Shown here: positions 25,797 to 57,202 of the stretch, piece by piece
Layout of the letters: each line of letters begins with the position of its first letter
Position numbering within the stretch: position 1 is the first letter of the stretch
Origin: Alphaproteobacteria bacterium
Lineage (GTDB): Bacteria > Pseudomonadota > Alphaproteobacteria > RF32 > CAG-239
Length of the DNA stretch: 64,000 bases
Direction: 5' to 3'
Assembly: GCA_017464685.1 (NCBI GenBank)
Contig: JAFTYO010000022.1
Location: 2,836-66,835, forward strand
Position numbers and translations under genes: made by a program
The notes under the pieces: generated by a model
What the model was told of the DNA's origin: nothing
The model's database searches: none
What the model saw: only the letters and a program-made list of their open reading frames with translations

Positions 25797-25800
25797 GATT

Positions 25801-27419: not shown

Positions 27420-27797
27420 TTAATTTTCTCCATATGTTTTATAAAATTGAAGTCACGGTCAAAAAATTTTTAAATATAGTTGCCCGCCTTCCGAATCAAA
27501 ATTATTCAAAAGGTGGAGAAAAATTGTTTTTAGGGATTTGCGACTGATTTATAATGAAAAATACGAGTTAAATTACGATATTATAATAATTTTTAGATTT
27601 AACTGCTCGTTTTTAGCGATTTTTTGATAAAAACTAGAAATTTGCCATCAAAATTAGGAAAATAAATTGGTATGATTTATAAATCTGAAGAGAGAAAAGT
27701 AGGTGATAAAAATTTACATATAAGAAAATTTTATGTTGAAAAATATTTTTAATATATTAAATTATATTTATATTGAATAATTTAATATGGTGATAAA

Positions 27798-28124
27798 ATG
27801 AATAAGCAGAAAATATTACTAGCTACAGGAGAAATTCTACAAACTGAGCGAAAAAAACAAAAAATTAAGCAAATTGATTTAGCTAAAAAAATTGGCTGTT
27901 CGACATCCGGTCTTTCTAAAATTGAAACTGGTACTGTAGAGATGAAATATTGTACTTTTATTGAAATTTGTGAAAATTTAAAATTAGATCCCAGTAAGGT
28001 ACTTAAACAGGCTGTAGAAATGTCACCTACAAGCTTAAAATGCTTTAAAAAAATTGAAAGTATGCTTCCTGATAAAAATTCGAAGATTGATTTAAATACC
28101 CTGATAGACTTCAATACCCTTTAA
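27798..28124 (+). CDS. XRE-family helix-turn-helix transcriptional regulator (108 aa)
   Basis: Cro/C1-type HTH (IKQIDLAKKIGCSTSGLSKIETG). Confidence 0.65.
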   Translation: MNKQKILLATGEILQTERKKQKIKQIDLAKKIGCSTSGLSKIETGTVEMKYCTFIEICENLKLDPSKVLKQAVEMSPTSLKCFKKIESMLPDKNSKIDLNTLIDFNTL

Positions 28125-28504
28125 TACTCCTCAGCCAATAAAATCGTCAGAACACGATTAGTGATTGTTTCATCGCTTGGGTCTAAGCTCAAGTATTGAT
28201 ATTCAACGTCGTAATAATCGATTTTCCAAAAATAAGTTACGCCGTCAAGGTCAAACGAGCCGAAGTCATGCTCGCCGTTTTGGTCGTTGTCTTGATTAAA
28301 ATTGCTGAAATTTCTGATTTTTTCTGTTATCTCAAGCTGCTTATCTATCGGCAATTCTGCTACGCCTCGCGTTATTAAAACCCGACCGCCTGAAAAATTT
28401 TGTCTTAAGTTATCGTTAAGCTCCCGAATTTTTTTGATTTTATCGTCCATATTGCACCTTTCGTTTAAAACAGAAAGAGCCGGAATTGCTTCCGACCCTT
28501 TCAT
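28121..28504 (-). CDS. DUF3768-like protein (127 aa)
   Basis: Carries a ...DFGSFDLDGVTYFWKIDYYD... block. This resembles a small protein family seen on plasmids and integrative elements of alphaproteobacteria. Confidence 0.4.
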   Translation of the reverse strand: MKGSEAIPALSVLNERCNMDDKIKKIRELNDNLRQNFSGGRVLITRGVAELPIDKQLEITEKIRNFSNFNQDNDQNGEHDFGSFDLDGVTYFWKIDYYDVEYQYLSLDPSDETITNRVLTILLAEEY

Positions 28505-28655
28505 AAAATTTGTTATACCGTTTCTTTTTCATTTTTTGCCTTTTTATTATTTTATAATATCGCCCTTACAAGAACTCAAGCAAATAATTCATATTTTTCT
28601 TTATACATTACAATAAACTGTTGCTATTTATCGCTTTGATAAATATGATGCGATT

Positions 28656-31547
28656 ATGATTACGGCAGAAGAAATAAGAGCGAAATATTGGGCTTTAGAA
28701 GTGCTGTCCTCACATAACCAAGAGGACATTAACAGCATTTCAGGCTCACTCGGCACATCTAAAATTGATTTGAATCCGCATCAGATTAATGCGGCGCTGT
28801 TTGCTTTGCAATCGCCTATATCGCAAGGCGTCATCTTAGCCGATGAAGTCGGTCTCGGTAAAACAATTGAAGCCGGAATTGTCATTTCAGAGTATTACTC
28901 ACGCGGCAAAAATTCAATAATTGTTGTTGCTCCTGCCAGTTTATGCCAACAATGGCAAACAGAAATGCAGGACAAATTTAATTTGCCGACACAAATTTTA
29001 GATAGCAAAATTATACATTCTGCCTTAAAAAATGAAGATACTGCCGTTTTGCAGTTTAAGGGCATAACAATTTGCTCTTATAACTGCGCCGTTCAATTCA
29101 AAAAAATAATGAAAGACCGCGATTGGGATTTGGTCGTTATTGATGAAGCTCATAAACTGCGCAACTTTTATAAAGGCAAGACTAAAATTGCCGAAGGCAT
29201 TAACGAAACTTTTCTCGGCAAGAAAAAATTACTTTTGACAGCGACGCCTATTCAAAATTCGCTCATGGACATTTTTTCACTTGTCAGCATTATAGACCCG
29301 AGCATTTTAGGCAATGAATATTCTTTTATGGAAAATTACCTTTATTCCGAGCAGCATCACGAAGAGCTTAAACGCCGCTTACAATGTGTTTTGCATAGAA
29401 CTTTGCGCCGTGATGTCTTAGAATATATTAAATATACCAATCGTGAAGCTATGACTGTCGCTTTTAATCCCACAAAAGCCGAAGAAGAACTTTATACTGC
29501 CGTTTCGGCTTATATTCAGGATATTTCGCAAATTGCTATTACGACACGCTTCAGAACGCTTATTGTGCTGATGATACGCAAATTGATGAGTTCTTCAACT
29601 GCGGCGGTCAAAGGAACACTTAAAGGCTTAATGAATCGCTTAAATACTCTTGAAAAGTCAAGCGGCAGCCTTGATAAGCTCGCTAACTTTATGTTTGACG
29701 AAGACCTTTTAAGCGAATACGAAGATAATATTGAAGATTTTGAACTCAAGCAAGCACTCAATAAGCCGAGCTTCAAAAAAGAAGATATAAAAGCAGAAAA
29801 AGAATTTTTGCAAAAATTGATTGATAAAGCCGCAAAAATCAAAGTTGACGGCAAGACCGAAAAGCTGATTGGCGCTATTGAACAAGGTTTTGAAAAAATA
29901 CAAGCCAAAGGCGGACTTCGCAAAGCTATTATCTTTACCGAAAGCAATCGTACGCTGAATTACCTCTATGATTATTTAAGCTCGCACGGTTTTAAGGACA
30001 AAATCGTTACCTTTAACGGTCAGAATAATTCGCCGCTTACCAATCAGATTTACAACGATTACGTCGAGAAACATTCATCAGATTTGACCGGTTCGCGCAC
30101 TAATGATATGAAAAAGGCGCTTGTTACGAAATTCAAAGAAGATGCTGAGATTATGATCGCTACCGAAGCGGCTGCCGAAGGCTTAAACCTGCAATTCTGC
30201 TCTTTGCTTGTCAACTATGACTTGCCATGGAATCCGCAACGTGTAGAGCAGCGTATCGGGCGCGTGCATCGTTATGGGCAAAAATGCGATGTCGTTATTA
30301 TCAACTTTATCAATAAGAAAAACGTTGCCGATGTTCGACTTTATGAGATTTTGCAACAAAAATTCAAATTATTTGACGGCGTATTCGGCGCAAGTGATGA
30401 GATTTTAGGCACATTGTCCGACGGCGTTGACTTTGAACGTGCCGTTGCCGATATTTTTGACCTTTGCCGCACGACCGAAGAAATAAATCGTGCCTTTGAC
30501 GAGCTGCAAGAAAGATTGGGCGTTAAACGCGAAGAAAAAATAGAAGAAGCCAAGCAGCTTGTTTTAGAGAATTTAAGCCCGACAACACAAGAAAAACTGC
30601 ATATTATGAAACAGCGCGTTGAAGATTATTTAGAGCGCCGCAAGCAGATTTTCTGGGATTTGACTGTTGTAATGCTTAAAAAATATCATCCTGAAATGTT
30701 TATCAACGAGCATACAAAAGTTTTCGGACAGTTTAAGGAGCAAGTATTCAATCTGCCGTCAGAGATTAACTTTGCTAAAAGCTTCAACTATTGCTTAAAC
30801 TTTAATAAACGCGAAATCAATCGAGATTTATTGTTGCCGAAAGAGCGCAAAGCCTTAAATCGTTCAGCAACGACTTATAATCCTGATTCCGGCTTCGGTA
30901 AGCGTATTTTGAGCGAAGCATTAAATTTGACTGCTGAGCCTTTACACTTGCAATTAAATCCGTCAGATAAATTAAAATCAGGGCAAAAAGGGCGTTTAGA
31001 GCTGTCTTTATTTAAGATGACGCAACCCGAGGACGTCAATTATTTAATAACGACAATAATGTCCGACAGCGGCAATTTACTGAATTTGCGGGCAGAAGAT
31101 ATTTTTGATAATGCCATCAATGTTGAAGAGCCGCTTTTAATGGGCTATCACGACTTATTAAGTCAAATTCACGAGCAAAACATTGCAAAATATGAAAAGT
31201 CTGAAAAAAAGCGCATTGACAATATTTTGCGTGCCGAAGTCGATAAGCTTAATCGTTGGCTGATAGATGAAAAGCAAGCCATACACTTGAAAGGCGATAA
31301 ACTTAAAAATAAGATTACGAGCCTTAAGCGGCAGCTAAAGCAAGAGAAAAATTTTGATGCCAAGCTTGCCATAAGTGTCGAGATTAAAAAGCTGCAAGAA
31401 GAAATGAACAACAACGAGTTCAATACTTTTGATACCGAGCGCGAGCTTGAAAAGAAATGTAATCGCCTCGTTGGCGGCAAAAAGCGCAGCTTAAAGATAG
31501 ATTACAGCATCGAGCCGATATTTGATATTACTTGGGAAGTTGAGTAG
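28656..31547 (+). CDS. SNF2-family helicase/ATPase with a ~400-aa coiled-coil C-terminal extension (963 aa)
   Basis: Motifs I (LADEVGLGKTIEAG), II (VVIDEAHKLRN), III (LLLTATPIQNS) and VI (QRIGRVHRYGQ) are present. The ATPase begins ~40 aa from the N-terminus. Confidence 0.85.
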   Translation: MITAEEIRAKYWALEVLSSHNQEDINSISGSLGTSKIDLNPHQINAALFALQSPISQGVILADEVGLGKTIEAGIVISEYYSRGKNSIIVVAPASLCQQWQTEMQDKFNLPTQILDSKIIHSALKNEDTAVLQFKGITICSYNCAVQFKKIMKDRDWDLVVIDEAHKLRNFYKGKTKIAEGINETFLGKKKLLLTATPIQNSLMDIFSLVSIIDPSILGNEYSFMENYLYSEQHHEELKRRLQCVLHRTLRRDVLEYIKYTNREAMTVAFNPTKAEEELYTAVSAYIQDISQIAITTRFRTLIVLMIRKLMSSSTAAVKGTLKGLMNRLNTLEKSSGSLDKLANFMFDEDLLSEYEDNIEDFELKQALNKPSFKKEDIKAEKEFLQKLIDKAAKIKVDGKTEKLIGAIEQGFEKIQAKGGLRKAIIFTESNRTLNYLYDYLSSHGFKDKIVTFNGQNNSPLTNQIYNDYVEKHSSDLTGSRTNDMKKALVTKFKEDAEIMIATEAAAEGLNLQFCSLLVNYDLPWNPQRVEQRIGRVHRYGQKCDVVIINFINKKNVADVRLYEILQQKFKLFDGVFGASDEILGTLSDGVDFERAVADIFDLCRTTEEINRAFDELQERLGVKREEKIEEAKQLVLENLSPTTQEKLHIMKQRVEDYLERRKQIFWDLTVVMLKKYHPEMFINEHTKVFGQFKEQVFNLPSEINFAKSFNYCLNFNKREINRDLLLPKERKALNRSATTYNPDSGFGKRILSEALNLTAEPLHLQLNPSDKLKSGQKGRLELSLFKMTQPEDVNYLITTIMSDSGNLLNLRAEDIFDNAINVEEPLLMGYHDLLSQIHEQNIAKYEKSEKKRIDNILRAEVDKLNRWLIDEKQAIHLKGDKLKNKITSLKRQLKQEKNFDAKLAISVEIKKLQEEMNNNEFNTFDTERELEKKCNRLVGGKKRSLKIDYSIEPIFDITWEVE

Positions 31548-31986
31548 ATTTTTGCTCTTGTGTAAATTTTCTTGCTATAAAGAAAGCATCAATAACTTCG
31601 TAAAACATTAAGAAATATAAGCTGAATAACAACACCTCAACTCCTTTAATAATATACTCCACCCATAAATTATCATAATATTCGTCAGGCGTAGCAACAA
31701 AGCATATTATCTGAAATCCATATATAATTAGCATTGTCAAAATATTCTTTTTCAAGGTTTTTTGCGTATTTAGACACTTGGTTTCAAATTTTTCCTGTAT
31801 ATTATCAAAAATCACTGTAAAGGCAGTCACAACCCCTACATATATAGCTAACATATTGCCCATTATGGCAAGAGATTCCTTCTCCATAAATTTTTGAAGA
31901 AATCCGTTATCAATATTATAATCTAAAATGAGTATAGGAAAAACTATACCGACAATAATCCCGGATAAAATACAAAACGTTCTCAT
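31528..31986 (-). CDS. small 4-TM membrane protein (152 aa), last gene of the Res-Mod operon
   Basis: Four hydrophobic helices. Its start is 1 nt after the upstream stop, and its 3' end overlaps the convergent SNF2 gene by 20 nt. Confidence 0.45.
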   Translation of the reverse strand: MRTFCILSGIIVGIVFPILILDYNIDNGFLQKFMEKESLAIMGNMLAIYVGVVTAFTVIFDNIQEKFETKCLNTQKTLKKNILTMLIIYGFQIICFVATPDEYYDNLWVEYIIKGVEVLLFSLYFLMFYEVIDAFFIARKFTQEQKSTQLPK

Positions 31987-31987
31987 G

Positions 31988-32878
31988 CTATTTCCTCAAT
32001 AAAATGTTCATTATCCCAGTTAATTGCTCTTTTGTTAAATTTTGACCGCGCAATGTAATATCCGTATCAACAAAAGATTCTGTTTTTATAGTATCATTAC
32101 TTGATATTGCTTTCTTTTTATTCCCTTTAAATTGTAGTTTAAATGTGCCTGCTCCTAAATCTACATATTCGGCACTTTCTTTGAGAAGTTTGTTGTTTTC
32201 TGATAAAGTTAAATTTCCATCCGTGTTTTCCATACTTATTTGAACTTTTGTAGAATTAAACTCTCCGGCAACAGATCTTAAGTCATTTTCTAATGATGAT
32301 TTAAGGTCTAGCAGGTTCGGTGGAATATAAGAAAATGTAATTTTTTTAATTTTACCTTCATTTTCTTTTACAACATTCCAAAATAAAGTTTTTTCAGAAG
32401 GTATGGAATTTATTGTTAAGAAAAATCCATATTTCTGTATATCTCTGTTAATAGCAGAAGCTAAATTTTGCAATACAGAAGCCCTATATTTCATATCCAC
32501 ATTATTAACTTGCACTAATAAAAGCTGTCCTTTTTTCGCAGTTTCTCCGCTATTGTGTTCGTTTGATAAATTTATGAATATATCGCACCCTGGCCAATCT
32601 TCAATTTCTCTTGTTTTAAAGCCTTCTTCAGGCGCTGTTCTTATATTCTTTTTAACTCGTTTACCAATATTGGCAAACACATACGAGCCTTCTTTTTGCT
32701 TTATATAAAGACAATAATCTTTTTCTCTACTTCTAAATTTATATGTTTTATCTGGTGAAAACATATCATCAATAACTTCTTCTCTTGTTTTTTGCTGACA
32801 AAAGGGAAGTTCAGGTTCCTCAATTGGGGTTAGAAAAAATCTATAATATTCAAAAAGTTCTTTAGAATTATTAGTCAT
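31988..32878 (-). CDS. hypothetical protein (296 aa) directly downstream of mod
   Basis: No recognisable motif. A 3-nt gap separates it from the mod stop. Confidence 0.4.
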   Translation of the reverse strand: MTNNSKELFEYYRFFLTPIEEPELPFCQQKTREEVIDDMFSPDKTYKFRSREKDYCLYIKQKEGSYVFANIGKRVKKNIRTAPEEGFKTREIEDWPGCDIFINLSNEHNSGETAKKGQLLLVQVNNVDMKYRASVLQNLASAINRDIQKYGFFLTINSIPSEKTLFWNVVKENEGKIKKITFSYIPPNLLDLKSSLENDLRSVAGEFNSTKVQISMENTDGNLTLSENNKLLKESAEYVDLGAGTFKLQFKGNKKKAISSNDTIKTESFVDTDITLRGQNLTKEQLTGIMNILLRK

Positions 32879-32881
32879 ATT

Positions 32882-34546
32882 CTATTCTTCCTCTTCTTCA
32901 AATTCAAAATCTTCGTCGGTTGGTGTGTATTTGCTGAGGTTGAGAGGGTAGCCTTCGCGACCCCATTCGCATTTTTTCAAAATTGCCGACGGGATTTTTT
33001 TAACAGTAATGTTCGGATAAGCATTTTTATTGCCGACAAAGGCGCTGCAACAAATAAGCAAATTATCGTTGCCGACTTCTGTTGCTAACTTGCCTAAAGA
33101 TTCCTCTTGCACGCTCATTGTCGTGGTATAAATAAAGCTCTTTTCAGAAGAAAAGCCCTGTTTCCAATACTTTTCAGCGTCCGGCTTATAATGATAGCCC
33201 AAAATCTTACACATTGCCTCAGCGAGCATATCAGCGTTGTATTTGTCCGAAATAATCTGCTGTCCGTATTTGTCTTTGACGATTAAAGATGATGCTAATT
33301 CATAGAATTTGAAACCGCCGCCACAAAGCCAACCGGTTGATTTTGTGACACCTGTGGAATCATTACCGGTAATAATTTCTTGCAGTCGTGGTATACAATG
33401 CGTATAAACATGGTCGCCCATTTCTACACCTATCCAACGACGCCCCATTTTATGCGCCACCGCCGCTGTTGTTCCCGAACCTAAAAAGCTATCAAGAACC
33501 AAATCTCCCGGTTTTGTCGACATTTCTAAAATTCTTTTAATTTGAACTTCCGGTTTTTTACTTTTAGCAAACGTTACTCCACCTTCACGCGCAATCCCTT
33601 GATAGTTCATATCATCCCATATATTTGTTACCAACTCTGCTGTTGTTAATTTTCCATCAATCATATGTAATTTATCTTTATAAAACAGTATTCTATTACC
33701 TTTATAAAGGTAAATATCTGGGTATCCCTCTCTTTTTTGTAAATATATTTTGTTGTCTTTCTTAGATAAATCAATAAGTTGTCTTGTTTCTTGTCCTACT
33801 GCTTTATAATCAGGCTGAGCAAATCTGATAATTTGGTTTGCATAACTGTTAAAATCTTTATCTAATGAAAATTTATATTTTTGCATAGCTTCTTTTAAAG
33901 GTATAAAACTCCAATTTTCAAAACCGCTATCGTAATTTTCAATAAATTGTGAATATGCTTTGTCATACTCACGAGCTTTGTAAACTGGTTGATAAACCCA
34001 TTTTTCTTTATTTTTTGCATATGTTAACATCAAATCGCAAACTTGAACAGGTGTAGGATTAATTGCTTTATGACCTGTTGCAGCCCCCCTTTTGATAGTT
34101 GTCATTATAATAAAATTTTTTCTACCGAAAATCTCATCACAAAGAACTTTTAAGTAATGTCCTTCGTTTTCATCGATTGAAATCCAAATACTCCCGTCTT
34201 CTGTGAGTAATTTTCTCAAAATTTCTAATCTATCACGCATTAAAGATAGCCAAATTGAATGTTCTAAACCATCATCATAATACAAAAAGGCACTTCCGGT
34301 GTTATATGGCGGATCAATATAAATACACTTAACTTTGCCGGTATAATCCTGCTCCAAAGCCTTCAACGCCAACAAATTATCACCATGAATTAGCATATTA
34401 TCGTAAGTCGGCTGAACTGAACCTTTTTCAGTCGGCTCAAAGGAAAATGACTTTTCCTTATCTTCAAGCAAAATACGTGGCTCTGGGTTAAATCTGTCTT
34501 CTTTCCCCGGCCATGTTAACTCTAATCTTGTCAATTTCTCAGTCAT
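32882..34546 (-). CDS. mod: Type III restriction-modification Mod subunit (beta-class N6-adenine DNA methyltransferase)
   Basis: Motif IV (IYIDPPYN) lies N-terminal to motif I (DSFLGSGTTAAVA), the beta-class order. The likely true start is MTEKLTRLELTWPGK at 34546, overlapping the upstream stop as ATGA. Confidence 0.8.
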   Translation of the reverse strand: MTEKLTRLELTWPGKEDRFNPEPRILLEDKEKSFSFEPTEKGSVQPTYDNMLIHGDNLLALKALEQDYTGKVKCIYIDPPYNTGSAFLYYDDGLEHSIWLSLMRDRLEILRKLLTEDGSIWISIDENEGHYLKVLCDEIFGRKNFIIMTTIKRGAATGHKAINPTPVQVCDLMLTYAKNKEKWVYQPVYKAREYDKAYSQFIENYDSGFENWSFIPLKEAMQKYKFSLDKDFNSYANQIIRFAQPDYKAVGQETRQLIDLSKKDNKIYLQKREGYPDIYLYKGNRILFYKDKLHMIDGKLTTAELVTNIWDDMNYQGIAREGGVTFAKSKKPEVQIKRILEMSTKPGDLVLDSFLGSGTTAAVAHKMGRRWIGVEMGDHVYTHCIPRLQEIITGNDSTGVTKSTGWLCGGGFKFYELASSLIVKDKYGQQIISDKYNADMLAEAMCKILGYHYKPDAEKYWKQGFSSEKSFIYTTTMSVQEESLGKLATEVGNDNLLICCSAFVGNKNAYPNITVKKIPSAILKKCEWGREGYPLNLSKYTPTDEDFEFEEEEE

Positions 34547-34925
34547 TCTTTTGTTCTTTCTTAAGTTGTTGTGCCAATTCCAAAATTTTTTCTTCACTTT
34601 CCAAACAGTTATCTGCCTCTTCCATGAATTTATAACAATCCTCTAAACTAACCGGAGAGGCAGGAACATTGTTAATGGGATTTATGGGTAACGTTCTTAA
34701 TTTTGAAATTTTGTATAACAATAATGTTATAGGATGATTAATTTCATTATCATCAATATGCAACGGAGTCCTTGTGTAAGTGTTAGCTACTTCAAATCCA
34801 AAAATAAGCATAAAATTAAAAAGCTCATTTTCTGAACCGTATTTGTTCATCAGCTTTATAGCCTTCCTCATAACAGATTCAAACTTATCTTTTAGCTTTT
34901 CTTCTAACTCTTGCTCTGTCATCAT
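34539..34925 (-). CDS. hypothetical protein (~128 aa) between rhuM and mod
   Basis: ATGA overlaps at both ends: the RhuM stop overlaps its start, and its stop overlaps the mod start. Confidence 0.35.
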   Translation of the reverse strand: MMTEQELEEKLKDKFESVMRKAIKLMNKYGSENELFNFMLIFGFEVANTYTRTPLHIDDNEINHPITLLLYKISKLRTLPINPINNVPASPVSLEDCYKFMEEADNCLESEEKILELAQQLKKEQKND

Positions 34926-35977
34926 TTTTGTTCCTTTTTCTTTGCCCAATCTTCAAGCTCTAAAAAGCGGTCAAAGTCACTTTGATACAGCTTATCTTGA
35001 ATAATCCGATATTTTTCAAACTCTGTTTCAGCGTGTTGTTTAGCCAGCTCTGCCGAAACTTTACCGGCGTCTTGCAAAATTTTATGGTCTAACATTGTTA
35101 AAAAGCCGTTTAAGCGTTGTTCCCAATCTTCCATTGTCATAGGAATATGGCGCATAGCCATTAACTCTGCCGTATCTAAGTAGGCGTTCACAATTCGCTC
35201 TAATTGCTTTAATTCAAACTCAGTCAAATAGTTTTTAGCAATAACTACATCATATTTGTGAATTTTGCTATCTGGAGCACCTTCCCATGTCGTCAAGCCC
35301 ATATGCTCTTTTTCTGCATCGGCACGGTCATAAATCACTTCTGCCGCAGTTTGCCCATGCACCGCATAATGCAATTTATTTTGAACTGCCGCAAAAAAGC
35401 GTTTTGTCGCTGTTGCCGTTGCGTCATAATCTACGGCGGTTGCGTAAATGTCTGTTACTTTTTGATAAAATCTGCGCTCAGATAAACGAATTTCGCGGAT
35501 TTTTTCTAATTGCTTTTCAAAATAATCTTGTGTTAATACTGAGCCGCCTTGCTTTAAGCGCTCAACGTCCATTACCCAGCCTTGAATGGTATAATCCTTA
35601 ACAATTTGATTTGCCCACTTACGAAATTGTACCGCGCGCTCGTTATTGACTTTGAAGCCGACGGCAATAATCATTTGCAAATTATAATGTGCAACTTCGC
35701 GCGAAATTTGACGATTACCCTCATTTTGAACTATTAAGTATTTCTTAATAGTTGCATCTTCTGACAATTCATTGTCGTCATAAATTTTCTTAATATGTTG
35801 ATTTATTGCAGAGACAGAAACATCATAAAGTGTCGCCATCATTTTTTGCGTAAGCCAGATATTCTCATTTTCATAGCGCATTTCAACACTTATCGGGTTA
35901 TCACCGGTTGCAGCTATAAATGTTAAATATTCGGCTGCTGATGAACGAATTGTTATTTCTTGTTTTTTCTTTGCCAT
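34922..35977 (-). CDS. RhuM-family protein
   Basis: Characteristic RhuM N-terminal block (NIWLTQKMMATLYDVSVSAINQHIKKIYDDNEL ... YNLQMIIAVGFKVNNERAVQFRKWANQIV). Its start is 1 nt after the res stop. Confidence 0.75.
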   Translation of the reverse strand: MAKKKQEITIRSSAAEYLTFIAATGDNPISVEMRYENENIWLTQKMMATLYDVSVSAINQHIKKIYDDNELSEDATIKKYLIVQNEGNRQISREVAHYNLQMIIAVGFKVNNERAVQFRKWANQIVKDYTIQGWVMDVERLKQGGSVLTQDYFEKQLEKIREIRLSERRFYQKVTDIYATAVDYDATATATKRFFAAVQNKLHYAVHGQTAAEVIYDRADAEKEHMGLTTWEGAPDSKIHKYDVVIAKNYLTEFELKQLERIVNAYLDTAELMAMRHIPMTMEDWEQRLNGFLTMLDHKILQDAGKVSAELAKQHAETEFEKYRIIQDKLYQSDFDRFLELEDWAKKKEQK

Positions 35978-35978
35978 T

Positions 35979-38681
35979 TTATCTTGCCTCATAATCTCTT
36001 ACCAGTTTTTCAAAACTGCGGTCTAGGGTTACGGTATTATCAGGTATCAACAAATAATGCCAAGCTTTGCCGTTATGCTTTTTCTCAAAGTCCGTTGCAA
36101 TTTCGCACCACTTCAAAGCCGCTTCTTTCTTGGCTAATACTGTCTTGTCCGTCATTTGATTTGAAGCCTTCGTTTCAATCATATACTTGCCGCTGATTGT
36201 TTCGACGATAAAGTCAGGGTAATAATTATGAAGCTGACGCTCATCATCAGGATATTTGATATTAAATATCTCTTTTGCCCTGTCATTATTCGGCTTAAAC
36301 CATTTTAAAACTTCGCCGGCATTTTCTAAAATTTCAGAAAGGTCTTTCTCTGTTGACGAATCAAACTTTTGCTTATCAAACAGGCATTTCTTAAAGCCGG
36401 TAAAAATCATATTTTTAATTTTAGACTTGTCGTGAACAGAAGCACGATAGTCAAGCGGCGTTTCGCCTTCTCTTGCCAGCATTTTATATGATTCCGACGT
36501 TTGTGTGCCGTAGTCGCTGTCAACTTTAACAGTTAATTCCATTTTAGCCGGACATAAATGCGCTTTCATCTGCAGCATAATTTTATGTGCGATGTCAACG
36601 CCGTTCCAAAACAGAATTTTGCGTGTATTTTCTTCGCTACCCGAATAAGAGTTGATGTAGTCAATCGTCTGTCTCACGAGCTTTTGAATTAAGTCGGCAT
36701 TTTCTTGATAAGAAACAATCATTTCATCAACCAAAGGCACAAGCAAATAGTGTGTTATATCTTCATAGCGGTCAAAAAATTCGGCTTGCATTTCGTCGCG
36801 ACCATGCCCGATAATTTCTTGAATTATCATTTTTTGAGATTCCGGCTTATAGCCGTTAAAATCTGCCGTGTCTATATCAAAATCATAAAAGCTGAAACTG
36901 TTTAATTGACGATAAGTTTGGATAATTCTCGGGATATTAATCGTCATTTTAATAACTGTGTCGGTCATATTTTTAGCCGTTTGCGGTAAATCAACAGTTG
37001 CCTCTAACGAAAGCTCCGAATTTTCCAACTTCATATATTTGAGCTTTTGCTCAGCCAGTTCGACGATTTTTTCTTGATTTTCTTTGCTTTTCAAGTCCTC
37101 AGGATTAAGAACATAGCGTCCTGTTTCAGCAATAGCCTCGCGAACAGCTTCGCCGATTTTGCGATTATCTTCATTTGTAAACACCGGTAAAGTTGCTTGT
37201 TTAGGCTGTGGCTTCGGCACAATTATATTGCCGTTTTGCAGTTCTTCATCAATTTTACTGGTGCTTGTTTCGACTGTTTTGCCGATTAAGCCGTTATCGC
37301 TATTATCAATATATTCTTGCTGAAATTCAAAGGACTGGTCGCGAGCTGCTTTAATAATGTCAGCAAATTTATCATGCGCGACGACGTGCAAGCGGTCTAT
37401 GGCTTCATCGTCGGTCAACTTGCCGTAAGGTAAACGCAAGCCGCGTCCGATAGACTGTTCTACCAAAATTTTTGAATCTGCTGTTCTGAGCGGCACAATC
37501 GTATAAAGATTGTTTACATCCCAACCTTCGCCGAGCATATTGACGTGTATCACGATTTCAGTCAGCTCGTCAGCATCTTCTATTTGCAATAAGCGTTGCA
37601 AGACTTCGTCTTTTAGCTCGCCGTTTTGCTTAGAGTTAACGACAATTACCTTGTCTTTATAGCGTCCTTCTTCAAAATCATCGCTCTTTATTTTGGCTTC
37701 AATGGCTTCAGCATGAGCAATATCCTTAGCAATTATCATCATAAAAGGCTTAACTTTACGTACCTTTTTATTGTCCGCATAAACCGCCAATTCAGCCTTA
37801 ACGCTCTCATGCACTTGAATGCCGTCTTTGATTTTTAAGTCTTCTAATGTGTCTTCGTCATATTGATTTTTATTAAAATCTGTGCGTCCGACGATAGCAG
37901 GCTTTTTAACAAAGCCGTCTTTTATGGCGTGAGCGAGATTATACTCATAAGCAATATTTCTGAAAGGCTTACCTTTTGCGCCTGTTGACTTTGCCGTAGC
38001 AGTCAGCTCAATACCTAAAACAGGATTCAGCTCATTAATTGCCGCCATACCGGCATTTGCACGATAGCGATGCGCCTCGTCCATAATCAGCACTAAATCT
38101 TTTAAGCCGGACAAATAATCGAAATACGATTGCCCTAAATATTCTGCCATACGGCGAACTCTCGGCATACCGCGTGCGTCTTTGTCTGAATCAATTTTAG
38201 AAATGTTGAAAATATTGATACGCAAGCGGTCATCATTAGGATTATCAAACAAGCCGCCGACTTGATCATAGTCATCGCCTGTAATAATTTGCGGCGTGCC
38301 GACATAAGTATTAAGACCAGGAAAAACATATTTAGCTGTGTTTGGCGTAAAATCTGTTTTTAATTTATTATAAATTGTTAAGTTTGGTGCCAAGACCATA
38401 AAATTTTTGATACCACATTCGGCATGAAGATACGCAATCATTGCACCCATTAAGCGCGTTTTACCGACGCCTGTGGCGATTGCAAAGCATATACAAGGGA
38501 AAGCACGCTCAAAATCTTTGATTGACGGACGCACTTCTTGAATAAGACGTAAAGCCTCTAAAGTGTCCATATTCTTAGCCAAAGTTATCTTTTCTAAGAT
38601 ATTTACCAAAATATCAAGGCTGTCTGTTTGCGGCTGACGCAAAGAAAGAGCTTGATTAATCATACGCTGCGTTTCGTTCAT
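35979..38681 (-). CDS. res: Type III restriction enzyme Res subunit (SF2 helicase plus C-terminal PD-(D/E)xK nuclease), 900 aa
   Basis: Walker A (ATGVGKT), DEAH (IMDEAH) and motif VI (QSIGRGLRLPYG). The C-terminal nuclease motif is YPDFIVE...IETK. Confidence 0.75.
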   Translation of the reverse strand: MNETQRMINQALSLRQPQTDSLDILVNILEKITLAKNMDTLEALRLIQEVRPSIKDFERAFPCICFAIATGVGKTRLMGAMIAYLHAECGIKNFMVLAPNLTIYNKLKTDFTPNTAKYVFPGLNTYVGTPQIITGDDYDQVGGLFDNPNDDRLRINIFNISKIDSDKDARGMPRVRRMAEYLGQSYFDYLSGLKDLVLIMDEAHRYRANAGMAAINELNPVLGIELTATAKSTGAKGKPFRNIAYEYNLAHAIKDGFVKKPAIVGRTDFNKNQYDEDTLEDLKIKDGIQVHESVKAELAVYADNKKVRKVKPFMMIIAKDIAHAEAIEAKIKSDDFEEGRYKDKVIVVNSKQNGELKDEVLQRLLQIEDADELTEIVIHVNMLGEGWDVNNLYTIVPLRTADSKILVEQSIGRGLRLPYGKLTDDEAIDRLHVVAHDKFADIIKAARDQSFEFQQEYIDNSDNGLIGKTVETSTSKIDEELQNGNIIVPKPQPKQATLPVFTNEDNRKIGEAVREAIAETGRYVLNPEDLKSKENQEKIVELAEQKLKYMKLENSELSLEATVDLPQTAKNMTDTVIKMTINIPRIIQTYRQLNSFSFYDFDIDTADFNGYKPESQKMIIQEIIGHGRDEMQAEFFDRYEDITHYLLVPLVDEMIVSYQENADLIQKLVRQTIDYINSYSGSEENTRKILFWNGVDIAHKIMLQMKAHLCPAKMELTVKVDSDYGTQTSESYKMLAREGETPLDYRASVHDKSKIKNMIFTGFKKCLFDKQKFDSSTEKDLSEILENAGEVLKWFKPNNDRAKEIFNIKYPDDERQLHNYYPDFIVETISGKYMIETKASNQMTDKTVLAKKEAALKWCEIATDFEKKHNGKAWHYLLIPDNTVTLDRSFEKLVRDYEAR

Positions 38682-38858
38682 TTTTAGGCCTTTTAATGAA
38701 TTTTAACAATGCAGCCAGTTTACAAGAGATGTTTGATACTTGCAAGCCTTAGAGTCATTCAATAACAAGATTCTTTAAGTATAGAGCTTAAAAAAAGGCT
38801 TCACGCCCTAAGACATGAAGCCGACACAATAATAACACTAGTGTTAAGTTAACTTATT

Positions 38859-39209
38859 TCAGAGGTGCAGTCTTGCGAAAACTTTGTATTCATCTTTCGG
38901 ATTGGTAAAGAAGATTTCCTTAGGCTTATGCGTTACCGTAGAAATTCTCTCAGGACGAGGTATGGCAATCATTTCGCAATAATCATCTGTCATATTTTCT
39001 ATTGCCGACATTTCTGCTTTTAAATATCCTTCACCGCAAGTTCCAAAAAAATAAAAAACTTTGTCCTGATTATAATATCCGGCTTCAAAAAAATTCTCTT
39101 TTTCTTCTTCTGTCACACACCGCAAAATCTCCGTTTTATCATCTTTATAATAGCGCAGGGCATACTCATAAGCTTTGTTATCAGTACAAATATAATAAAC
39201 TTCAATCAT
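38859..39209 (-). CDS. small protein paralog B (116 aa)
   Basis: Shares the YY(I/L)C.D..AY.(Y/F)AL..Y...F..G(T/H)C..GYLK(A/M)E pattern with 39223..39570. Confidence 0.4.
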   Translation of the reverse strand: MIEVYYICTDNKAYEYALRYYKDDKTEILRCVTEEEKENFFEAGYYNQDKVFYFFGTCGEGYLKAEMSAIENMTDDYCEMIAIPRPERISTVTHKPKEIFFTNPKDEYKVFARLHL

Positions 39210-39222
39210 CGTCTTACCCTCG

Positions 39223-39570
39223 CTAATTTGTCCGTAAAATGTCCTTGTCGTTGATAATATAGCCTTCGATATATTCTTCTAACGGCTTGCCTGTAAGGCG
39301 AGATTTTTGAGCTCTGTAAGGTATGTAATAGCCTTCAAATTTTTCGGGATAAATTGTTAAAAATTTTTTGAGCTCCATTTTCAAATAGCCGTTGTGACAA
39401 TGTCCGAAAACATAAAATTTTTTATTTATATTTTCAAAAATGAGCCAACCGGCGGCATCTGTATCTTTCTGTATTTCACAAAATGCCACTTGAGTAAAAG
39501 TATCTGCATAATTTTTTAAGGCAAATTTATATGCTCTTTTGTCGCAGCATAAATAATATGTTTCTTTCAT
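39223..39570 (-). CDS. small protein paralog A (115 aa)
   Basis: Tandem paralog of 38859..39209, 14 nt upstream of it. Confidence 0.4.
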   Translation of the reverse strand: MKETYYLCCDKRAYKFALKNYADTFTQVAFCEIQKDTDAAGWLIFENINKKFYVFGHCHNGYLKMELKKFLTIYPEKFEGYYIPYRAQKSRLTGKPLEEYIEGYIINDKDILRTN

Positions 39571-39882
39571 TTTGTTAATCCTTATAAAAACTAAGCTGAT
39601 TTTCCCTTACATTTAAAATTATTAAAGAGATGTATGAATGTTATGAATTTTTGAGGCATTGTTTTATTTATTTTTCAACTACCGAGAAATTCTCGGCTGT
39701 TCAACTATCCGGAATTTCCGAACAGTTCGTTTTGCCTTAGAACTCGACTCATTATAGAATACATATTTTATAATAAGTCCTTATTTTTCAATGGCTTGAG
39801 AAATTCTGTTCTTGAACTTTTGTACGAACTCATTATAATTTATTTGTAAAATCAGATATTTATAATAAGTTTGGAGGTCAAA
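39571..39882. promoter_or_regulatory. 312-bp intergenic region with clustered palindromes, a candidate switch or operator
   Basis: Palindromes CCGAGAAATTCTCGG, CGGAATTTCCG and CGAACAGTTCG at 39682..39731. Short inverted repeats CTGATTTT/AAAATCAG lie near both ends (39596..39603 and 39849..39856). Confidence 0.35.
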
Positions 39883-40482
39883 ATGTCTATTGGTAAGCAA
39901 GCAAAAATCTTAAGCGACAAACAGCAAAATCTAACTCTGGCGCATTTAGAAACAACGCGCTATCCGTTACGCAATAAAATTATATTTTTACTCAGTTTCA
40001 AAGAAGGGCTGAGAGCCAAAGAAATTTCAAAGTTAGTTTGGGGTATGGTATGCAGTTCTGAGGGCAAAATTGCCGATGTCATTAATTTAAGCAACAACGC
40101 AAGCAAAGGTAAATACTCCGGCAGAATAATCCCTCTGCATAAAGAGTTGAAAATTTTACTGGCTGATTTGCTAGCTGAAAGGCAGAAAGATGAGTATTTC
40201 AATTTAGATAAGCCGGTTATTACGACCGAGCGAGGCGAGCATACGACGCCGCAAGTTATTGTCAATTTTTTCTATCACTTATATAAAACAATCGGCTTCA
40301 ACGGCTGTTCGTCACATAGCGGTCGCAGAACTTTTATTACAAATGCGGCAAAGCACATAAGTTTGGTCGGCGGCACATTGAACGATGTCAGATTACTTGC
40401 CGGTCACTCATCACTTGCTACCACCCAACGCTATATTGCTTACGACACCGAGGCTCAGAGAAGAATTGTAGAAATGAGCTAA
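39883..40482 (+). CDS. small tyrosine recombinase, FimB/FimE-sized and catalytic-domain only (~199 aa)
   Basis: Box I Arg (GLRAKEISKL), then HSGRRTF and LAGHSSLATTQRY (H-x-x-R...Y). There is no N-terminal arm-binding domain. RBS GGAGG lies before the ATG at 39883. Confidence 0.7.
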   Translation: MSIGKQAKILSDKQQNLTLAHLETTRYPLRNKIIFLLSFKEGLRAKEISKLVWGMVCSSEGKIADVINLSNNASKGKYSGRIIPLHKELKILLADLLAERQKDEYFNLDKPVITTERGEHTTPQVIVNFFYHLYKTIGFNGCSSHSGRRTFITNAAKHISLVGGTLNDVRLLAGHSSLATTQRYIAYDTEAQRRIVEMS

Positions 40483-48039: not shown

Positions 48040-48170
48040 TATCTGATTTAAACACCTTTAAAGACTCTTTTTACTTGCAAAAAAAAAAAACGGTTTATGA
48101 TGCGACCTGAGAGGCTAATTTTTGACCTTTCAAGTACATTTAAACTTAATTTTTGTAAAGGATATAAATT
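48040..48170 (+). promoter_or_regulatory. conserved upstream region U1 of the SCPU-like family, with a 12-A tract (48079..48090) after TTGCAA
   Basis: GACTCTTTTTACTTGCA-A(n)-CGGTTTATGATGCGA... is shared with 49905..50034 and 56540..56671. Confidence 0.5.
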
Positions 48171-48626
48171 ATGAGAAAATATTTTCTTTTATCTGCTGTT
48201 GCTTTAATAGCTGCAACAACAGCAAACGCAACAACCGACTATGCCGAAGTAACCGCTAAGGCTACAATTGAAGTGGCAAACAAGTATGATTGTGGTGAAG
48301 TTAATTGGGGCACAATCGTTGTCAAACAAAACAATTCTGATATTTTGTTACAAATGGATTCGGATACTGGAAAAGTAACTTCTGGTTCAGATGATGTAAT
48401 TTCCGTTACTGGTGCATCTAGAGCACAGTGTGATAACTCGGAGACTGAGTTGTACCCTGAGGGGATGAATATACCTTCCATAACATTAAGAGCCGATGGT
48501 AAAACACAAACTCTTACCTATGCTCCGGACGGTTACGGCGATTTTATAGGTGGCAGCTTAACAATTCCTGCCAAAATTGAAGCCGGCACTTATACAGGTT
48601 CATTTACTATTACTGAAACTTACTAA
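48171..48626 (+). CDS. SCPU/Csu-pilin-like secreted protein, paralog 1 (151 aa)
   Basis: Signal peptide (MRKYFLLSAVALIAATTANA). The mature domain has a Cys followed by a W/FG motif, and the C-terminus (GTYTGSFTITETY) matches the spore-coat-U/Csu pilin end motif. Confidence 0.5.
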   Translation: MRKYFLLSAVALIAATTANATTDYAEVTAKATIEVANKYDCGEVNWGTIVVKQNNSDILLQMDSDTGKVTSGSDDVISVTGASRAQCDNSETELYPEGMNIPSITLRADGKTQTLTYAPDGYGDFIGGSLTIPAKIEAGTYTGSFTITETY

Positions 48627-48676: not shown

Positions 48677-49048
48677 TCACAACCAAGTTAAGACAAGAAA
48701 CAATATCGGTGATAAAAAAATAAGCTTTGCCAATGTGGGGTGATTTTTCATATTACTGGTACCGATTAAGAACAAAAGAAAAAACTCTATTAATAAATCT
48801 TGCATATTGCCAATATAAACTTCTTGATTGATATAATACCATAAACCTTGAGTATATTCAGAATTAAAAATAGCATCATTTTCTGTAGGCGGATTTAGAT
48901 ATCCCCAAATCAATATAAAATAAAACAACGAATATAGTGCAACATACCACTTAAAATCCAAAAGCAATTTAATTGTATTGACAATATGTTCTTTAACAAT
49001 ATTTATGGCTCGCATTTGATATTCCTTATTGGTGTAACATTTTTTCAT
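48677..49048 (-). CDS. small 3-TM membrane protein (123 aa), candidate immunity partner of the upstream toxin-like gene
   Basis: Lies immediately downstream of the DUF2778-like gene on the same strand. Three hydrophobic helices. Confidence 0.35.
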   Translation of the reverse strand: MKKCYTNKEYQMRAINIVKEHIVNTIKLLLDFKWYVALYSLFYFILIWGYLNPPTENDAIFNSEYTQGLWYYINQEVYIGNMQDLLIEFFLLFLIGTSNMKNHPTLAKLIFLSPILFLVLTWL

Positions 49049-49105
49049 ATTACCAGTAAAAACATTAAAAGCAAGATTAAATATTCTTGCCTCTAATGTT
49101 TATGC

Positions 49106-49738
49106 TTACCAATTATTCGGATATTTTACATATACAGGTACAGATTCTTGACAATCATCTAAATAGTCATTTAATTTTCCCGTTTGCCACGGAATATCAA
49201 TACAACCCGCAGAGCCTTTACTTAGTCCACCATGTATCGTAAATCCTGAACGGCCATATGTATCGGTATTTTCATCAGGTTGCAACCAAACACGGTTTAT
49301 TCCCCACGCTGGAATTGACCCTGGCCATTTTCCGCGTTTTCCGAAACCAATAATAGAATCAATTAATGATATATTCTGTCTTTGGTCTTGATTAGCATAA
49401 TATATCCCCTCAGGTAACGGACCTTTATTAGCTACATTTTGATATCGTGAACTTTGATAATCTCGATGACCTGATTGAGCATCCAGATTAGCATATTGTC
49501 CCATATTATTATATAATCCTAAATTTTGACCATTGAATGTCATATAACAATTCGGATTGTTATAACTGTCATTTGGGCAATAACCATAATTATCGTTGGA
49601 TACATAATTACCGCCATACATAGTATCATAGTACCTTTGTCGATTGGCATATTCTTTAAGCTTATTAAGAAAATTCTGATTCGAATATCCTGTGTTGTAA
49701 GTTTGTTCATAAGATTGATATTTTGGATAATTATACAT
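49106..49738 (-). CDS. DUF2778/Tlde1-like protein with an L,D-transpeptidase catalytic fold and an N/Y/Q-rich N-terminus (210 aa)
   Basis: The C-terminal block GPLPEGIYY...GRSGFTIHGGLSKGSAGCID has H and Cys arranged as in YkuD-type L,D-transpeptidases and the Tlde1 effector family. The N-terminal ~110 aa are low-complexity N/Y/Q-rich. Confidence 0.5.
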   Translation of the reverse strand: MYNYPKYQSYEQTYNTGYSNQNFLNKLKEYANRQRYYDTMYGGNYVSNDNYGYCPNDSYNNPNCYMTFNGQNLGLYNNMGQYANLDAQSGHRDYQSSRYQNVANKGPLPEGIYYANQDQRQNISLIDSIIGFGKRGKWPGSIPAWGINRVWLQPDENTDTYGRSGFTIHGGLSKGSAGCIDIPWQTGKLNDYLDDCQESVPVYVKYPNNW

Positions 49739-49904: not shown

Positions 49905-50034
49905 ACCATTTTTGATTTAAATCCACAATTAGACTCTTTTTACTTGCAAAAAAAACGGTTTAAGATGCGATATGAAAGGCTAATTTTTAGCTTTTCAAAT
50001 TAAGTTTAACTATTTTTGTAAAGGATTAAATAAA
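49905..50034 (+). promoter_or_regulatory. conserved upstream region U2, with an 8-A tract (49948..49955) and the palindrome GATTTAAATC
   Basis: The same block as U1 and U3, differing mainly in A-tract length. Confidence 0.5.
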
Positions 50035-50481
50035 ATGAGAAAATATTTTCTTTTAACTGCTGTTGCTTTAATAGCTGCAACAACAGCAAACGCAACAACC
50101 GACTATGCCGAAGTAACAGCAAAAGCTACAATCGAGGTAGCAGGTACTTTTTCTTGTTCTAAAATCAATTATGGTAACATTGTAGTAAAACAAAAAAATA
50201 GAGCTTTTTCTATTCTTGCCCATGATTTATCTTCTGATGGTGGTTATGCTGATGACCTTATTTCAATCACAGGTGCTAATAATGCTGTATCAACATGTAC
50301 TGCAACTATTCCAGATAGTGTTGGTGGTTATGTTGAGCTGACAAATAGCAATGGTGATAAAATAGGAGTTGAATATCATGGAGAAAATACTACTAATTTA
50401 TACTCATTCATTAGTATCCCTGCCGAGGTTAAAGCCGGTGAATATGAAGGTTCATTTACCTTAACTTTAACTCAAGAATAA
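50035..50481 (+). CDS. SCPU/Csu-pilin-like secreted protein, paralog 2 (148 aa)
   Basis: Its signal peptide is identical to paralog 1 for 20 aa. C-terminus GEYEGSFTLTLTQE. Confidence 0.5.
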   Translation: MRKYFLLTAVALIAATTANATTDYAEVTAKATIEVAGTFSCSKINYGNIVVKQKNRAFSILAHDLSSDGGYADDLISITGANNAVSTCTATIPDSVGGYVELTNSNGDKIGVEYHGENTTNLYSFISIPAEVKAGEYEGSFTLTLTQE

Positions 50482-56671: not shown

Positions 56672-57202
56672 ATGAGAAAATATTTTCTTTTAGGTGCTGT
56701 TGCTTTGATGATTTCAGGCACAGCAAATGCCACCGGATATGCATCGGGTGTTTTTGCAACAACAGTTAATTTAAAAAAAGCATCTGCCATTGAATGTTCT
56801 CAAGCTCTAGATTTTGGAACAGTGATAGTCACAACTTTAGAAGATAGTTCTGGCACAGTCGAGATATTGGGTAAGAATGGAAAAAATGTAAGCAGTGGAA
56901 GTAATGGAATATTCATAGAAGGCACACCTACACCTGCTAAATGTACTATATCCGGCGATGCAGCTTATGCAATAGCAGATACTAATGCAACAATTACTTT
57001 TGAAAGGCTAAATCCTGTAATTAACAGTGCTGATACAGGAGTAGAATTTTCTACAGATGACTCTTATGTTGCTTATAACGAGGAAGAGTATTATGAAGGT
57101 GATGGAAATATGGACCTGTTTATTGGTGGTAAATTATCAATTTCGGAACTTTATACTGAAGGTGAATTTACAGAAAACATTCTAATGAAAATTACATACT
57201 AA
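56672..57202 (+). CDS. SCPU/Csu-pilin-like secreted protein, paralog 3 (176 aa)
   Basis: Signal peptide MRKYFLLGAVALMISGTANA. The block ...ECSQALDFGTVIV... matches the SCPU Cys and FG motif. Confidence 0.5.
   Translation: MRKYFLLGAVALMISGTANATGYASGVFATTVNLKKASAIECSQALDFGTVIVTTLEDSSGTVEILGKNGKNVSSGSNGIFIEGTPTPAKCTISGDAAYAIADTNATITFERLNPVINSADTGVEFSTDDSYVAYNEEEYYEGDGNMDLFIGGKLSISELYTEGEFTENILMKITY

Follow-up and report, generated by a model that had tools for sequence, protein, structure and literature searches.

A putative toxin–immunity pair formed by a Tlde1-type cell-wall toxin and a small membrane protein in the chromosome of an uncultured gut alphaproteobacterium

What could be the role of an L,D-transpeptidase-fold enzyme that carries no signal peptide, begins with a Tyr/Asn-rich low-complexity stretch and is followed on the chromosome by a small protein with three transmembrane (TM) segments? 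The question is raised by a locus on contig JAFTYO010000022.1 (assembly GCA_017464685.1) of an Alphaproteobacteria bacterium, and the DNA examined here, hereafter the window, is the 64-kb stretch that contains it (GC 33%). Our results make it probable that the locus is a chromosomal toxin–immunity pair, composed of a Tlde1-type cell-wall toxin and a membrane immunity protein. A preliminary description, made from the letters of the window, had placed the two open reading frames (ORFs) at 49106..49738(-) (210 aa) and 48677..49048(-) (123 aa), and both are found at these positions. The features discussed below are collected in Table 1.

The larger ORF, with an AAGGA ribosome-binding site (RBS) about 8 nt upstream of its ATG, belongs to the Tlde1 family. 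Pfam PF10908 (Tlde1_dom, formerly DUF2778) matches aa 85-182 with an E-value of 7.9e-10 and 39.6 bits against a gathering score of 30.1, which is far beyond chance and bears out the DUF2778/Tlde1 identity proposed beforehand; the Tlde1 motifs reported for the C-terminal part are also present, as KGPLPEGIYY (aa 105-114) and YGRSGFTIHGGLSKGSAGCIDIP (aa 161-183). When 5.8 billion proteins were searched with the toxin as query, 269 relatives were retrieved, and all 120 of these that were listed carry PF10908. Across the C-terminal ~150 aa the relatives are 55-77% identical, and their N-termini differ in both length and sequence. The few that bear a name are recorded as 'DUF2778 domain-containing protein [Alphaproteobacteria bacterium]', and NCBIfam offers no model for the toxin or for the small membrane protein. 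All close relatives come from gut or rumen metagenome-assembled genomes (roe deer, yak, goat, horse, mouse, Hadza and other humans) under the record names 'Alphaproteobacteria bacterium', 'uncultured Azospirillum sp.' and 'Azospirillum sp. 51_20', lineages that we take to belong to the GTDB order RF32; about 55 species have a member of the family. In an alignment of 60 sequences, the conserved block extends from Cys64 (N-C-Y-M-T-F-N/D-G-Q-N-L; NCYMTFNGQNL in the window) through the last residue, and the positions invariant in the 60 homologs include Cys64, Arg163, His169, Cys179 and Cys196.

The predicted structure leads to the same family. AlphaFold models aa 63-210 confidently (predicted local distance difference test, pLDDT, ~90), and a Foldseek search of the PDB with the model ranks 7UO8, 7UMA and 7UO3, the structures of Salmonella Tlde1a, as the top three (E 1.4e-7), followed by YkuD, LdtMt1/2 and YcbB. 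A PDB search with the single toxin sequence gave zero matches, and the family profile matched Tlde1a alone (7UMA, 7UO3, 7UO8; E 1e-3), pairing R163/H169/S176/G178/C179 with R115/H121/S128/G130/C131 of Tlde1a, in which His121 is catalytic and Cys131 is the nucleophile (PMC9638812). The YkuD-like arrangement of His and Cys noticed beforehand thus falls on the catalytic residues of Tlde1a, which is the closest structure, with YkuD behind it. Profile membership, fold and the conserved catalytic residues together identify the toxin as an enzyme of the Tlde1 family and of the L,D-transpeptidase fold. The full (S/T)HGC motif is absent, the residues being S176-A177-G178-C179, and the Ala is conserved in at least 90% of the family. 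In Tlde1a, the H129A substitution keeps D-amino-acid exchange and loses most of the crosslinking and part of the carboxypeptidase activity (PMC9638812), and since Ala177 stands where Tlde1a has His129, the balance of enzymatic activities may differ here from that of Tlde1a. A signal peptide was found in no family member, and the invariance of the Cys64/Cys196 pair suggests a disulfide bond and an oxidising, periplasmic site of action.

For the smaller ORF, the three TM segments proposed in the preliminary description are recovered by hydropathy (34-51, 85-100 and 104-123 in the numbering of the 123-aa ORF) and by AlphaFold, which gives helices at 22-40, 64-87 and 93-111 of the 112-aa form (pLDDT 89) in addition to an N-terminal amphipathic helix. 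Its length needs correction. The ORF of 123 aa does exist, with an alternative upstream ATG at 49048 that has no RBS; the ATG of Met12 at 49015 has AAGGA 7 nt upstream and leaves 90 nt after the toxin stop codon (85-95 nt in other loci), gene callers assign 112 aa to the closest homologs, and the gene probably starts at Met12 to encode 112 aa. In the 123-aa ORF, seven K/R residues are found in the N-terminal segment, and the short turn joining TM2 to TM3 has a single K; from this charge distribution and the positive-inside rule, an N-in topology is predicted, in which the acidic loop between TM1 and TM2 would be periplasmic and a candidate toxin-binding surface. The loop is conserved in part (NPP..D..I...E...G.W.Y.NQEVYIG), and the most conserved stretch of the family is the GTSNM(K/R)NHP turn. 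The small protein has no match in Pfam, NCBIfam or PHROG, none of its 38 database homologs has a Pfam match, and a fold search of its model against the PDB returned nothing below E 4.

The evidence that this protein serves immunity comes from the genomic contexts of the family. The loci around the relatives came from metagenome assemblies and, for GTDB, from a single genome of each species, with flanks of at most 10 kb per locus, and ORFs were called anew and assigned with hidden Markov models (HMMs). In 42 of the 46 full-length toxin loci, the toxin gene is immediately followed by a homolog of the small gene in the same orientation, and the wider neighbourhoods of these loci differ (RelA/SpoT, Lon, VirD4 plus ligase, prophage, and fmt/ppiD in the window); across these differing contexts the small proteins are 46-54% identical. 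Many loci contain two to four tandem immunity paralogs, and several hold C-terminal pieces of truncated toxins, with an immunity copy behind every piece. Orphan copies also occur: between uvrD and tilS of another genome (loci L073-L076; e.g. L073:4947-5846), an immunity gene 95.5% identical to that of the window stands without any detectable toxin remnant, and the nucleotide identity of 94% begins 37 nt past the would-be toxin stop codon. The synteny, the tandem arrays and the toxin-free orphan copies argue that the small gene behaves as an immunity gene, which agrees with the position ascribed to it in the preliminary description. The arrangement of the window is unchanged in at least eight contigs from independent samples.

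Toxin variant and partner type also appear to co-vary. In three loci (L010, L012 and L014), the toxin has GSRGC instead of GSAGC and a loop insertion (…SLTPKNIALKLGEKLG…), and the gene behind it encodes a lipoprotein-like protein of 224-276 aa in place of the three-TM protein; this partner looks like a second immunity type. A membrane-embedded immunity protein has a precedent in one Tlde1 subfamily (Tai7; preprint 10.1101/2020.02.18.954545).

The spacer between the two genes has a conserved layout as well. A terminator-like hairpin lies directly 3' of the toxin stop codon, and an equivalent core (GGCAAGA...TCTTGCC) is present, again between an A-rich 5' flank and a T-rich 3' flank, in 28 of 31 distinct toxin–immunity spacers, each of which was folded and scored against shuffles (median z -5.6). 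A -10-like hexamer follows the hairpin, TAATAT in the window and often TATAAT in other loci, and the orphan immunity loci retain the -10/RBS stretch at 94% nucleotide identity without a toxin. We infer from these sequence features that a terminator closes the toxin gene and that the immunity gene has its own promoter, so that immunity would be expressed independently of the toxin.

Table 1. Positions of the toxin gene, the putative immunity gene and the related features in the window
Feature	Position	Strand	Basis
Toxin gene, 210 aa: disordered N-terminus and C-terminal Tlde1/DUF2778 L,D-transpeptidase-fold domain	49106..49738	-	ORF, RBS, PF10908
Toxin N-terminus, aa 1-62: Tyr/Asn-rich, low-complexity, one predicted helix (aa 20-40)	49553..49738	-	Composition, AlphaFold
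Tlde1 domain, aa 63-210	49109..49552	-	Invariant alignment columns, pLDDT ~90, Foldseek
His169 codon	49232..49234	-	Aligned to catalytic His121 of Tlde1a (profile-to-PDB alignment)
Cys179 codon	49202..49204	-	Aligned to nucleophile Cys131 of Tlde1a; S-A-G-C replaces S-H-G-C
Terminator-like hairpin, 17-bp stem, A-rich 5' flank, T-rich 3' flank	49060..49101	-	RNAfold dG -20.3 kcal/mol, z -5.8 vs shuffles
Putative -10 element of the immunity gene (TAATAT, 49047-49052) and RBS (AAGGA, 49023-49027)	49023..49052	-	Sequence; function inferred
Putative immunity gene, 112 aa: amphipathic N-terminal helix and three TM helices, inner membrane	48677..49015	-	Synteny, homologs, AlphaFold
Acidic TM1-TM2 loop, aa 41-73 of the 112-aa form (33 aa; 5 D/E, 0 K/R), predicted periplasmic	48797..48895	-	Charge, positive-inside rule
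Turn G-T-S-N-M-(K/R)-N-H-P between TM2 and TM3	48737..48763	-	Invariant in all 34 aligned immunity homologs
DUF4402-like secreted protein, 151 aa	48171..48626	+	Pfam DUF4402 E 3.3e-5, 25.0 bits vs 25.2 cut-off
DUF4402-like paralog, 148 aa	50035..50481	+	phmmer E 1.9e-33 to the 151-aa paralog
Third DUF4402-like paralog, above the DUF4402 threshold	56672-57202	+	35.5 bits

The N-terminus of the toxin had been described as a prion-like stretch of ~110 aa made almost purely of N, Y, Q, G and S. The enrichment is real, since N+Y+Q make up 48% of aa 1-62 as opposed to 14.5% in 19 other window proteins, a value reached by 0 of 11,726 background windows of 62 aa. The extent was overstated: the low-complexity part ends at about aa 62, because conserved and confidently folded sequence begins at aa 63/64, and even within these 62 residues N, Y, Q, G and S sum to only 61%. 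Tyr contributes 23%, Asn 19% and Gln 6.5%; with N+Q at just 26% and a helix interrupting the stretch, 'prion-like' serves here as a label of composition. AlphaFold gives pLDDT below 50 at aa 1-18 and 37-60, predicting disorder, and a moderately confident, charged helix at aa 20-40. No significant relatives of this N-terminus beyond near-identical strains were found by HMM, phmmer or six-frame comparison: the best phmmer match among 140 family N-termini had E 0.03 and was confined to a 15-residue helix, an HMM made from P0004, P0005 and P0081, the three short N-termini most like it, failed to recover the window sequence up to E 10, and the six-frame comparison of the 5' DNA gave low-complexity noise alone. 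The residues aa 1-62 sit where the relatives bear exchangeable N-terminal modules, and they are presumed to be a trafficking region that determines export or import. A motif resembling [FMN]-[ST]-[LT]-R-[DEH]-E-[LI], seen by eye, recurs near the N-terminus of several otherwise unrelated classes (P0074, P0116, P0097, P0108, P0002 and others), and it may be a common recognition signal.

The N-terminal modules of the relatives place the toxin within a larger family. A module of ~95 aa (M..Y.KY.SP.GYQ.G...D.YGVDHSGFSTRDELEYQ.AR...NYPQYGTNFWG...NNYGFG, followed by N/Q/G-rich linkers) is common to Tlde1-domain proteins and to neighbours with GH108 muramidase (E 2.5e-18), SAA-like (E 3e-20) or unannotated C-termini, in loci L012, L013, L022, L025, L027, L028, L043, L045 and L060. 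Behind each module-bearing toxin stands a small partner gene of its own, for a membrane or signal-peptide protein, and at least five such toxins stand in a row in L060 (L060:1784-7334). At least five more N-terminal classes exist in the family; none of the relatives' N-terminal modules has a Pfam or PHROG family, and a homology search with the ~95-aa module returned only short, unnamed fragments and no word on delivery. A separate toxin in L081 has a different N-terminus and a weak pesticin-like C-terminus (PF16754, E 7.5e-5, below threshold). From the sequence comparison, the relatives in gut and rumen Alphaproteobacteria form a polymorphic-toxin family that combines common N-terminal modules with interchangeable cell-wall warheads. 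The idea that the window N-terminus is a degenerate 'YGVDHS' module was rejected, since it scores only -0.7 bits (E 0.22, 2 targets) against an HMM from which the window had been left out.

How such toxins could leave the cell was sought in the window and around the relatives. The Pfam scan covered 38 window ORFs (most of those of at least 110 aa); none of them is a component of a type I to type VII secretion system (T1SS-T7SS), in agreement with the earlier statement that no secretion system of classical type lies in the window, and no Pfam family of genes linked to T6SS (hcp, vgrG, PAAR, adaptors) occurs in these 38 proteins. The scan returned an AI-2E transporter, fmt, a PpiD-like rotamase, FtsH, Mfd and an island with recombinase, methylase, SNF2 and RhuM genes, and the only export-related gene is SlipAM, a Slam-type outer-membrane protein (surface lipoprotein assembly modifier) at 4867-5742 (+) (E 8.6e-41), 43 kb away. 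No secretion gene recurs within 10 kb of ~60 close-family loci, and literature on secretion systems in RF32-type gut Alphaproteobacteria yielded nothing relevant. When the 1,273 genes of 72 loci were clustered, the recurrent neighbours of the toxin were the immunity family, other small membrane or signal-peptide proteins, a helical protein of ~153 aa and phage structural genes. The ~153-aa protein (c2) occurs in 14 loci, in most of which it is the immediate upstream neighbour of the toxin, and is absent from the window. It was considered as a secretion adaptor and set aside; it is helical and has no Pfam or PHROG family, and with a weak N-terminal HTH_19 match in one member (E 0.008, below threshold) it is probably a regulator.

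Phage structural genes surround some members of the family. In L012, L014, L017, L042 and L081, the modules lie within a podovirus-like structural block (portal, major head, tail and S74-chaperone fibre), and in L081:400-16400, and likewise in L063 and L069, toxin–immunity modules stand amid scaffold, major head, tail, S74-chaperone fibre and tail-fibre genes. Just two close relatives were found among the 2.9 million viral contigs of IMG/VR, and two weak matches among GenBank phages, so that phage carriage is the exception. In the window locus, phage genes, the modules shared by the relatives and the upstream c2 gene are all absent.

Since the cell wall is the target of the GH108 and pesticin-like warheads as well, the toxins of this family would need to cross only the outer membrane of a target cell, which fits T6SS cargo as well as bacteriocins of the colicin M/pesticin type; delivery as T6SS cargo, as a colicin M/pesticin-like bacteriocin or in association with phage may all be considered. 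A bolder proposal is that the variable N-termini of the family, the 62 aa of the window and the ~95-aa 'YGVDHSGFSTRDELEYQ' module among them, define a T6SS-free delivery of cell-wall toxins, with the three-TM protein as a new membrane immunity fold, and we hold this to be doubtful. Such a route could possibly consist of self-translocating, colicin M/pesticin-like bacteriocins of gut Alphaproteobacteria, or possibly of toxins borne by podovirus-like particles, the latter being conceivable because some toxins are encoded inside virion structural modules.

According to the above comparisons, a mechanism can be proposed. Lacking a Sec signal, the toxin would have no substrate in the cytoplasm of its producer, and after export it would act in the periplasm of a neighbouring Gram-negative cell, with the Tyr/Asn-rich N-terminus serving export or import. 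There, Cys179, activated by His169, would attack the bond between meso-diaminopimelic acid and D-Ala in the tetrapeptide stems of peptidoglycan, resulting in L,D-carboxypeptidase and/or D-amino-acid exchange activity, which would deplete acceptor stems and weaken the wall. In sibling cells, the 112-aa three-helix protein with its acidic periplasmic loop would most likely neutralise the incoming toxin, presumably by binding it, and its gene would be transcribed from its own promoter past the conserved terminator-like hairpin.

Several observations weigh against a working toxin–immunity pair. Delivery machinery is absent from the scanned window ORFs and none recurs near the ~60 close-family loci; Ala occupies the place of the second His of (S/T)HGC, as in the Tlde1a H129A mutant with its reduced activities; a toxin domain with 55-77% identity is unusually conserved for an arms-race protein; and the most invariant turn of the small protein is predicted to be cytoplasmic, which a simple periplasmic binder would not obviously need. 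In addition, the window N-terminus matches no N-terminal module common among the relatives, so that the window copy could be undeliverable. Alternatively, the locus could be a disarmed remnant, in which a toxin that has lost its trafficking module is kept mainly for the sake of immunity against the Tlde1-type toxins of related gut Alphaproteobacteria, an explanation that we consider unlikely. It would account for an N-terminus that is mostly disordered and unlike every N-terminal class of the family, for an immunity gene that is 93-96% identical between lineages when the toxin domain is at most 77% identical to its next relative, and for a related genome that retains the immunity gene alone. 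It would not lead one to expect an intact toxin ORF with a good RBS and every family-invariant residue, nor the same 210-aa gene in at least eight contigs from different samples, and short N-termini of 31-63 aa are found in other family members too.

The most serious alternative, to which we assign a low probability, is a phage-type lysis or virion cell-wall cassette, since an enzyme without a signal peptide next to a small three-TM protein resembles the architecture of an endolysin with its holin. Some relatives do lie within podovirus-like structural modules (portal, major head, tail), the neighbours in a viral structure library include an L,D-transpeptidase-fold phage protein named 'Endolysin' and a phage 'Tlde1 domain-containing protein', and a DUF2778 gene is annotated in Burkholderia phage JC1. 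Nevertheless, the viral contig L081 encodes, besides a toxin and three immunity paralogs, a separate endolysin with GH108 and PG_binding_3 domains (phrog_315, E 1e-56) flanked by small membrane ORFs; the small protein of the window ends inside TM3, without the charged cytoplasmic tail typical of holins; its tandem arrays and enzyme-free orphan copies look immunity-like; and the rarity of close relatives in viral contigs and the lack of phage genes near the window locus, as given above, speak against a cassette as well. A housekeeping role, in which the enzyme would remodel the peptidoglycan of its own cell as an L,D-carboxypeptidase/transpeptidase with a dedicated membrane partner, could explain why the domain is 55-77% identical over many species and why the window locus sits amid fmt, ppiD-like and tpiA genes, but it is very improbable: signal peptides are missing throughout the family; both the number of copies and their place in the genome differ (two loci in some genomes); the modular N-termini also occur in combination with GH108, SAA-like and pesticin-like C-termini; toxin tips are found in truncated form and immunity genes in arrays; and a related genome keeps the partner gene with the toxin absent.

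The toxin–immunity reading can also be compared with known systems. The best structural match is the pair Tlde1a/Tldi1a (Tae5/Tai5) of the Salmonella Typhimurium T6SS on pathogenicity island 6 (SPI-6; 7UMA, 7UO3, 7UO8), with which the toxin shares PF10908, the aligned catalytic His and Cys with the same short His-x9-Cys spacing, Arg115/Arg163 and Gly130/Gly178, the lack of a signal peptide and the bicistronic arrangement. The differences are considerable, as identity is only ~22-25% over the structural alignment, SAGC stands here for SHGC, and the toxin has an extra disordered N-terminus of ~62 aa; the Salmonella immunity protein Tldi1a is a periplasmic DUF2195 protein encoded upstream, whereas the one here is polytopic, encoded downstream and devoid of the DUF2195 domain and Sec signal peptide, and the terminator-like hairpin between the genes and the lack of visible T6SS linkage also set this locus apart. 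A parallel for the partner, compared by description only, is Tlde1c/Tldi1c (Tae7/Tai7), whose immunity proteins have at least one TM segment, carry no annotated domain and adjoin the toxin (10.1101/2020.02.18.954545). Tae7 toxins are found mostly in Enterobacterales, Burkholderia and Pseudomonas, and some are fused to Rhs, in contrast to the family here, which is limited to gut and rumen Alphaproteobacteria and has N-terminal modules of its own; the same preprint links Tlde1 effectors to Rhs and PAAR and places DUF2778 genes also near T1SS, T2SS, T4SS and T5SS loci (10.1101/2020.02.18.954545). YkuD-type enzymes (B. subtilis YkuD, LdtMt1/2, YcbB) have the fold and the His/Cys pair in common with the toxin, but they are Sec-exported housekeeping enzymes without an immunity partner, only 11-19% identical to it, and their motif has a longer His-to-Cys spacing, HXX14-17-(S/T)HGCh (PMC9638812).

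Two further groups resemble the family in mode of action or organisation. The toxin has no sequence homology to colicin M or pesticin, and the resemblance is one of mode of action, with the bacteriocin mode as a hypothesis. Colicin M and pesticin are small, soluble, peptidoglycan-targeting bacteriocins whose unstructured N-terminal region serves translocation and whose C-terminal warhead acts in the periplasm; they are encoded alongside a periplasm-facing immunity protein and need no dedicated secretion system. No TonB/TolB box or receptor-binding domain was seen by eye in the disordered N-terminus of the toxin, for which no systematic search was made. Polymorphic toxin systems, which reportedly include phage-borne MuF toxins, are alike in that the relatives here pair one N-terminal module with varied C-terminal toxins, each with its own immunity gene, and in that orphan toxin tips, immunity arrays and embedding in phage structural genes occur; they are unlike in that no MuF, Rhs, PAAR, LXG or filamentous-haemagglutinin part was seen here and that the shared modules are missing from the window copy.

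Experimental work on Tlde1-type toxins has until now dealt with T6SS effectors of Salmonella, and surveys have covered mainly Enterobacterales, Burkholderia and Pseudomonas. The locus represents a separate and well-conserved branch in uncultured gut and rumen Alphaproteobacteria. The novelty is limited to the unannotated immunity fold, the SAGC variant of the active site, the putative terminator-then-promoter layout and the orphan disordered N-terminus; Tlde1 toxins with immunity partners, and membrane-embedded immunity in the Tai7 subfamily, were already known. If the N-termini did specify a route that bypasses secretion systems or is linked to phage, this would be a new way to move cell-wall toxins between gut bacteria. 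Furthermore, the natural change of His to Ala in SHGC offers a way to test which features of these enzymes set the choice between carboxypeptidase and exchange activity.

The pair had also been reported to sit between two SCPU-like paralogs. The two flanking genes are indeed paralogs (Table 1), but they are DUF4402-like, and neither matches SCPU (PF05229) even at E up to 1. The two proteins are nearly identical in the signal peptide and over the first ~35 aa and diverge in the middle, and a box of 25 nt upstream (AGACTCTTTTTACTTGCAAAAAAAA) is the same in both genes; the ~270 nt comprising their upstream and 5' DNA are alike at 79-100% (48062-48335 vs 49931-50199), and their 3' ends at 71%. Because these genes are absent from other toxin loci, they are not part of the module, and no chaperone or usher gene lies near the three secreted DUF4402-like paralogs. 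In L073-L076, a single DUF4402-like gene is convergent to the orphan immunity gene, with 94% nucleotide identity at the junction and ~50% protein identity in the gene body, a mosaic pattern. Elsewhere in the window, an ORF of 2845 aa at 9241-18391 (+), preceded by a small ankyrin-repeat protein, has a weak teneurin-EGF match below threshold only, and 24211-40482 is a probable integrated island adjoining tRNA-Pro (24211-24287), with genes for a large serine recombinase, an SNF2 helicase, an N6/N4 DNA methylase, RhuM, a ResIII/TnsA-like protein, DUF3768 and a tyrosine integrase.

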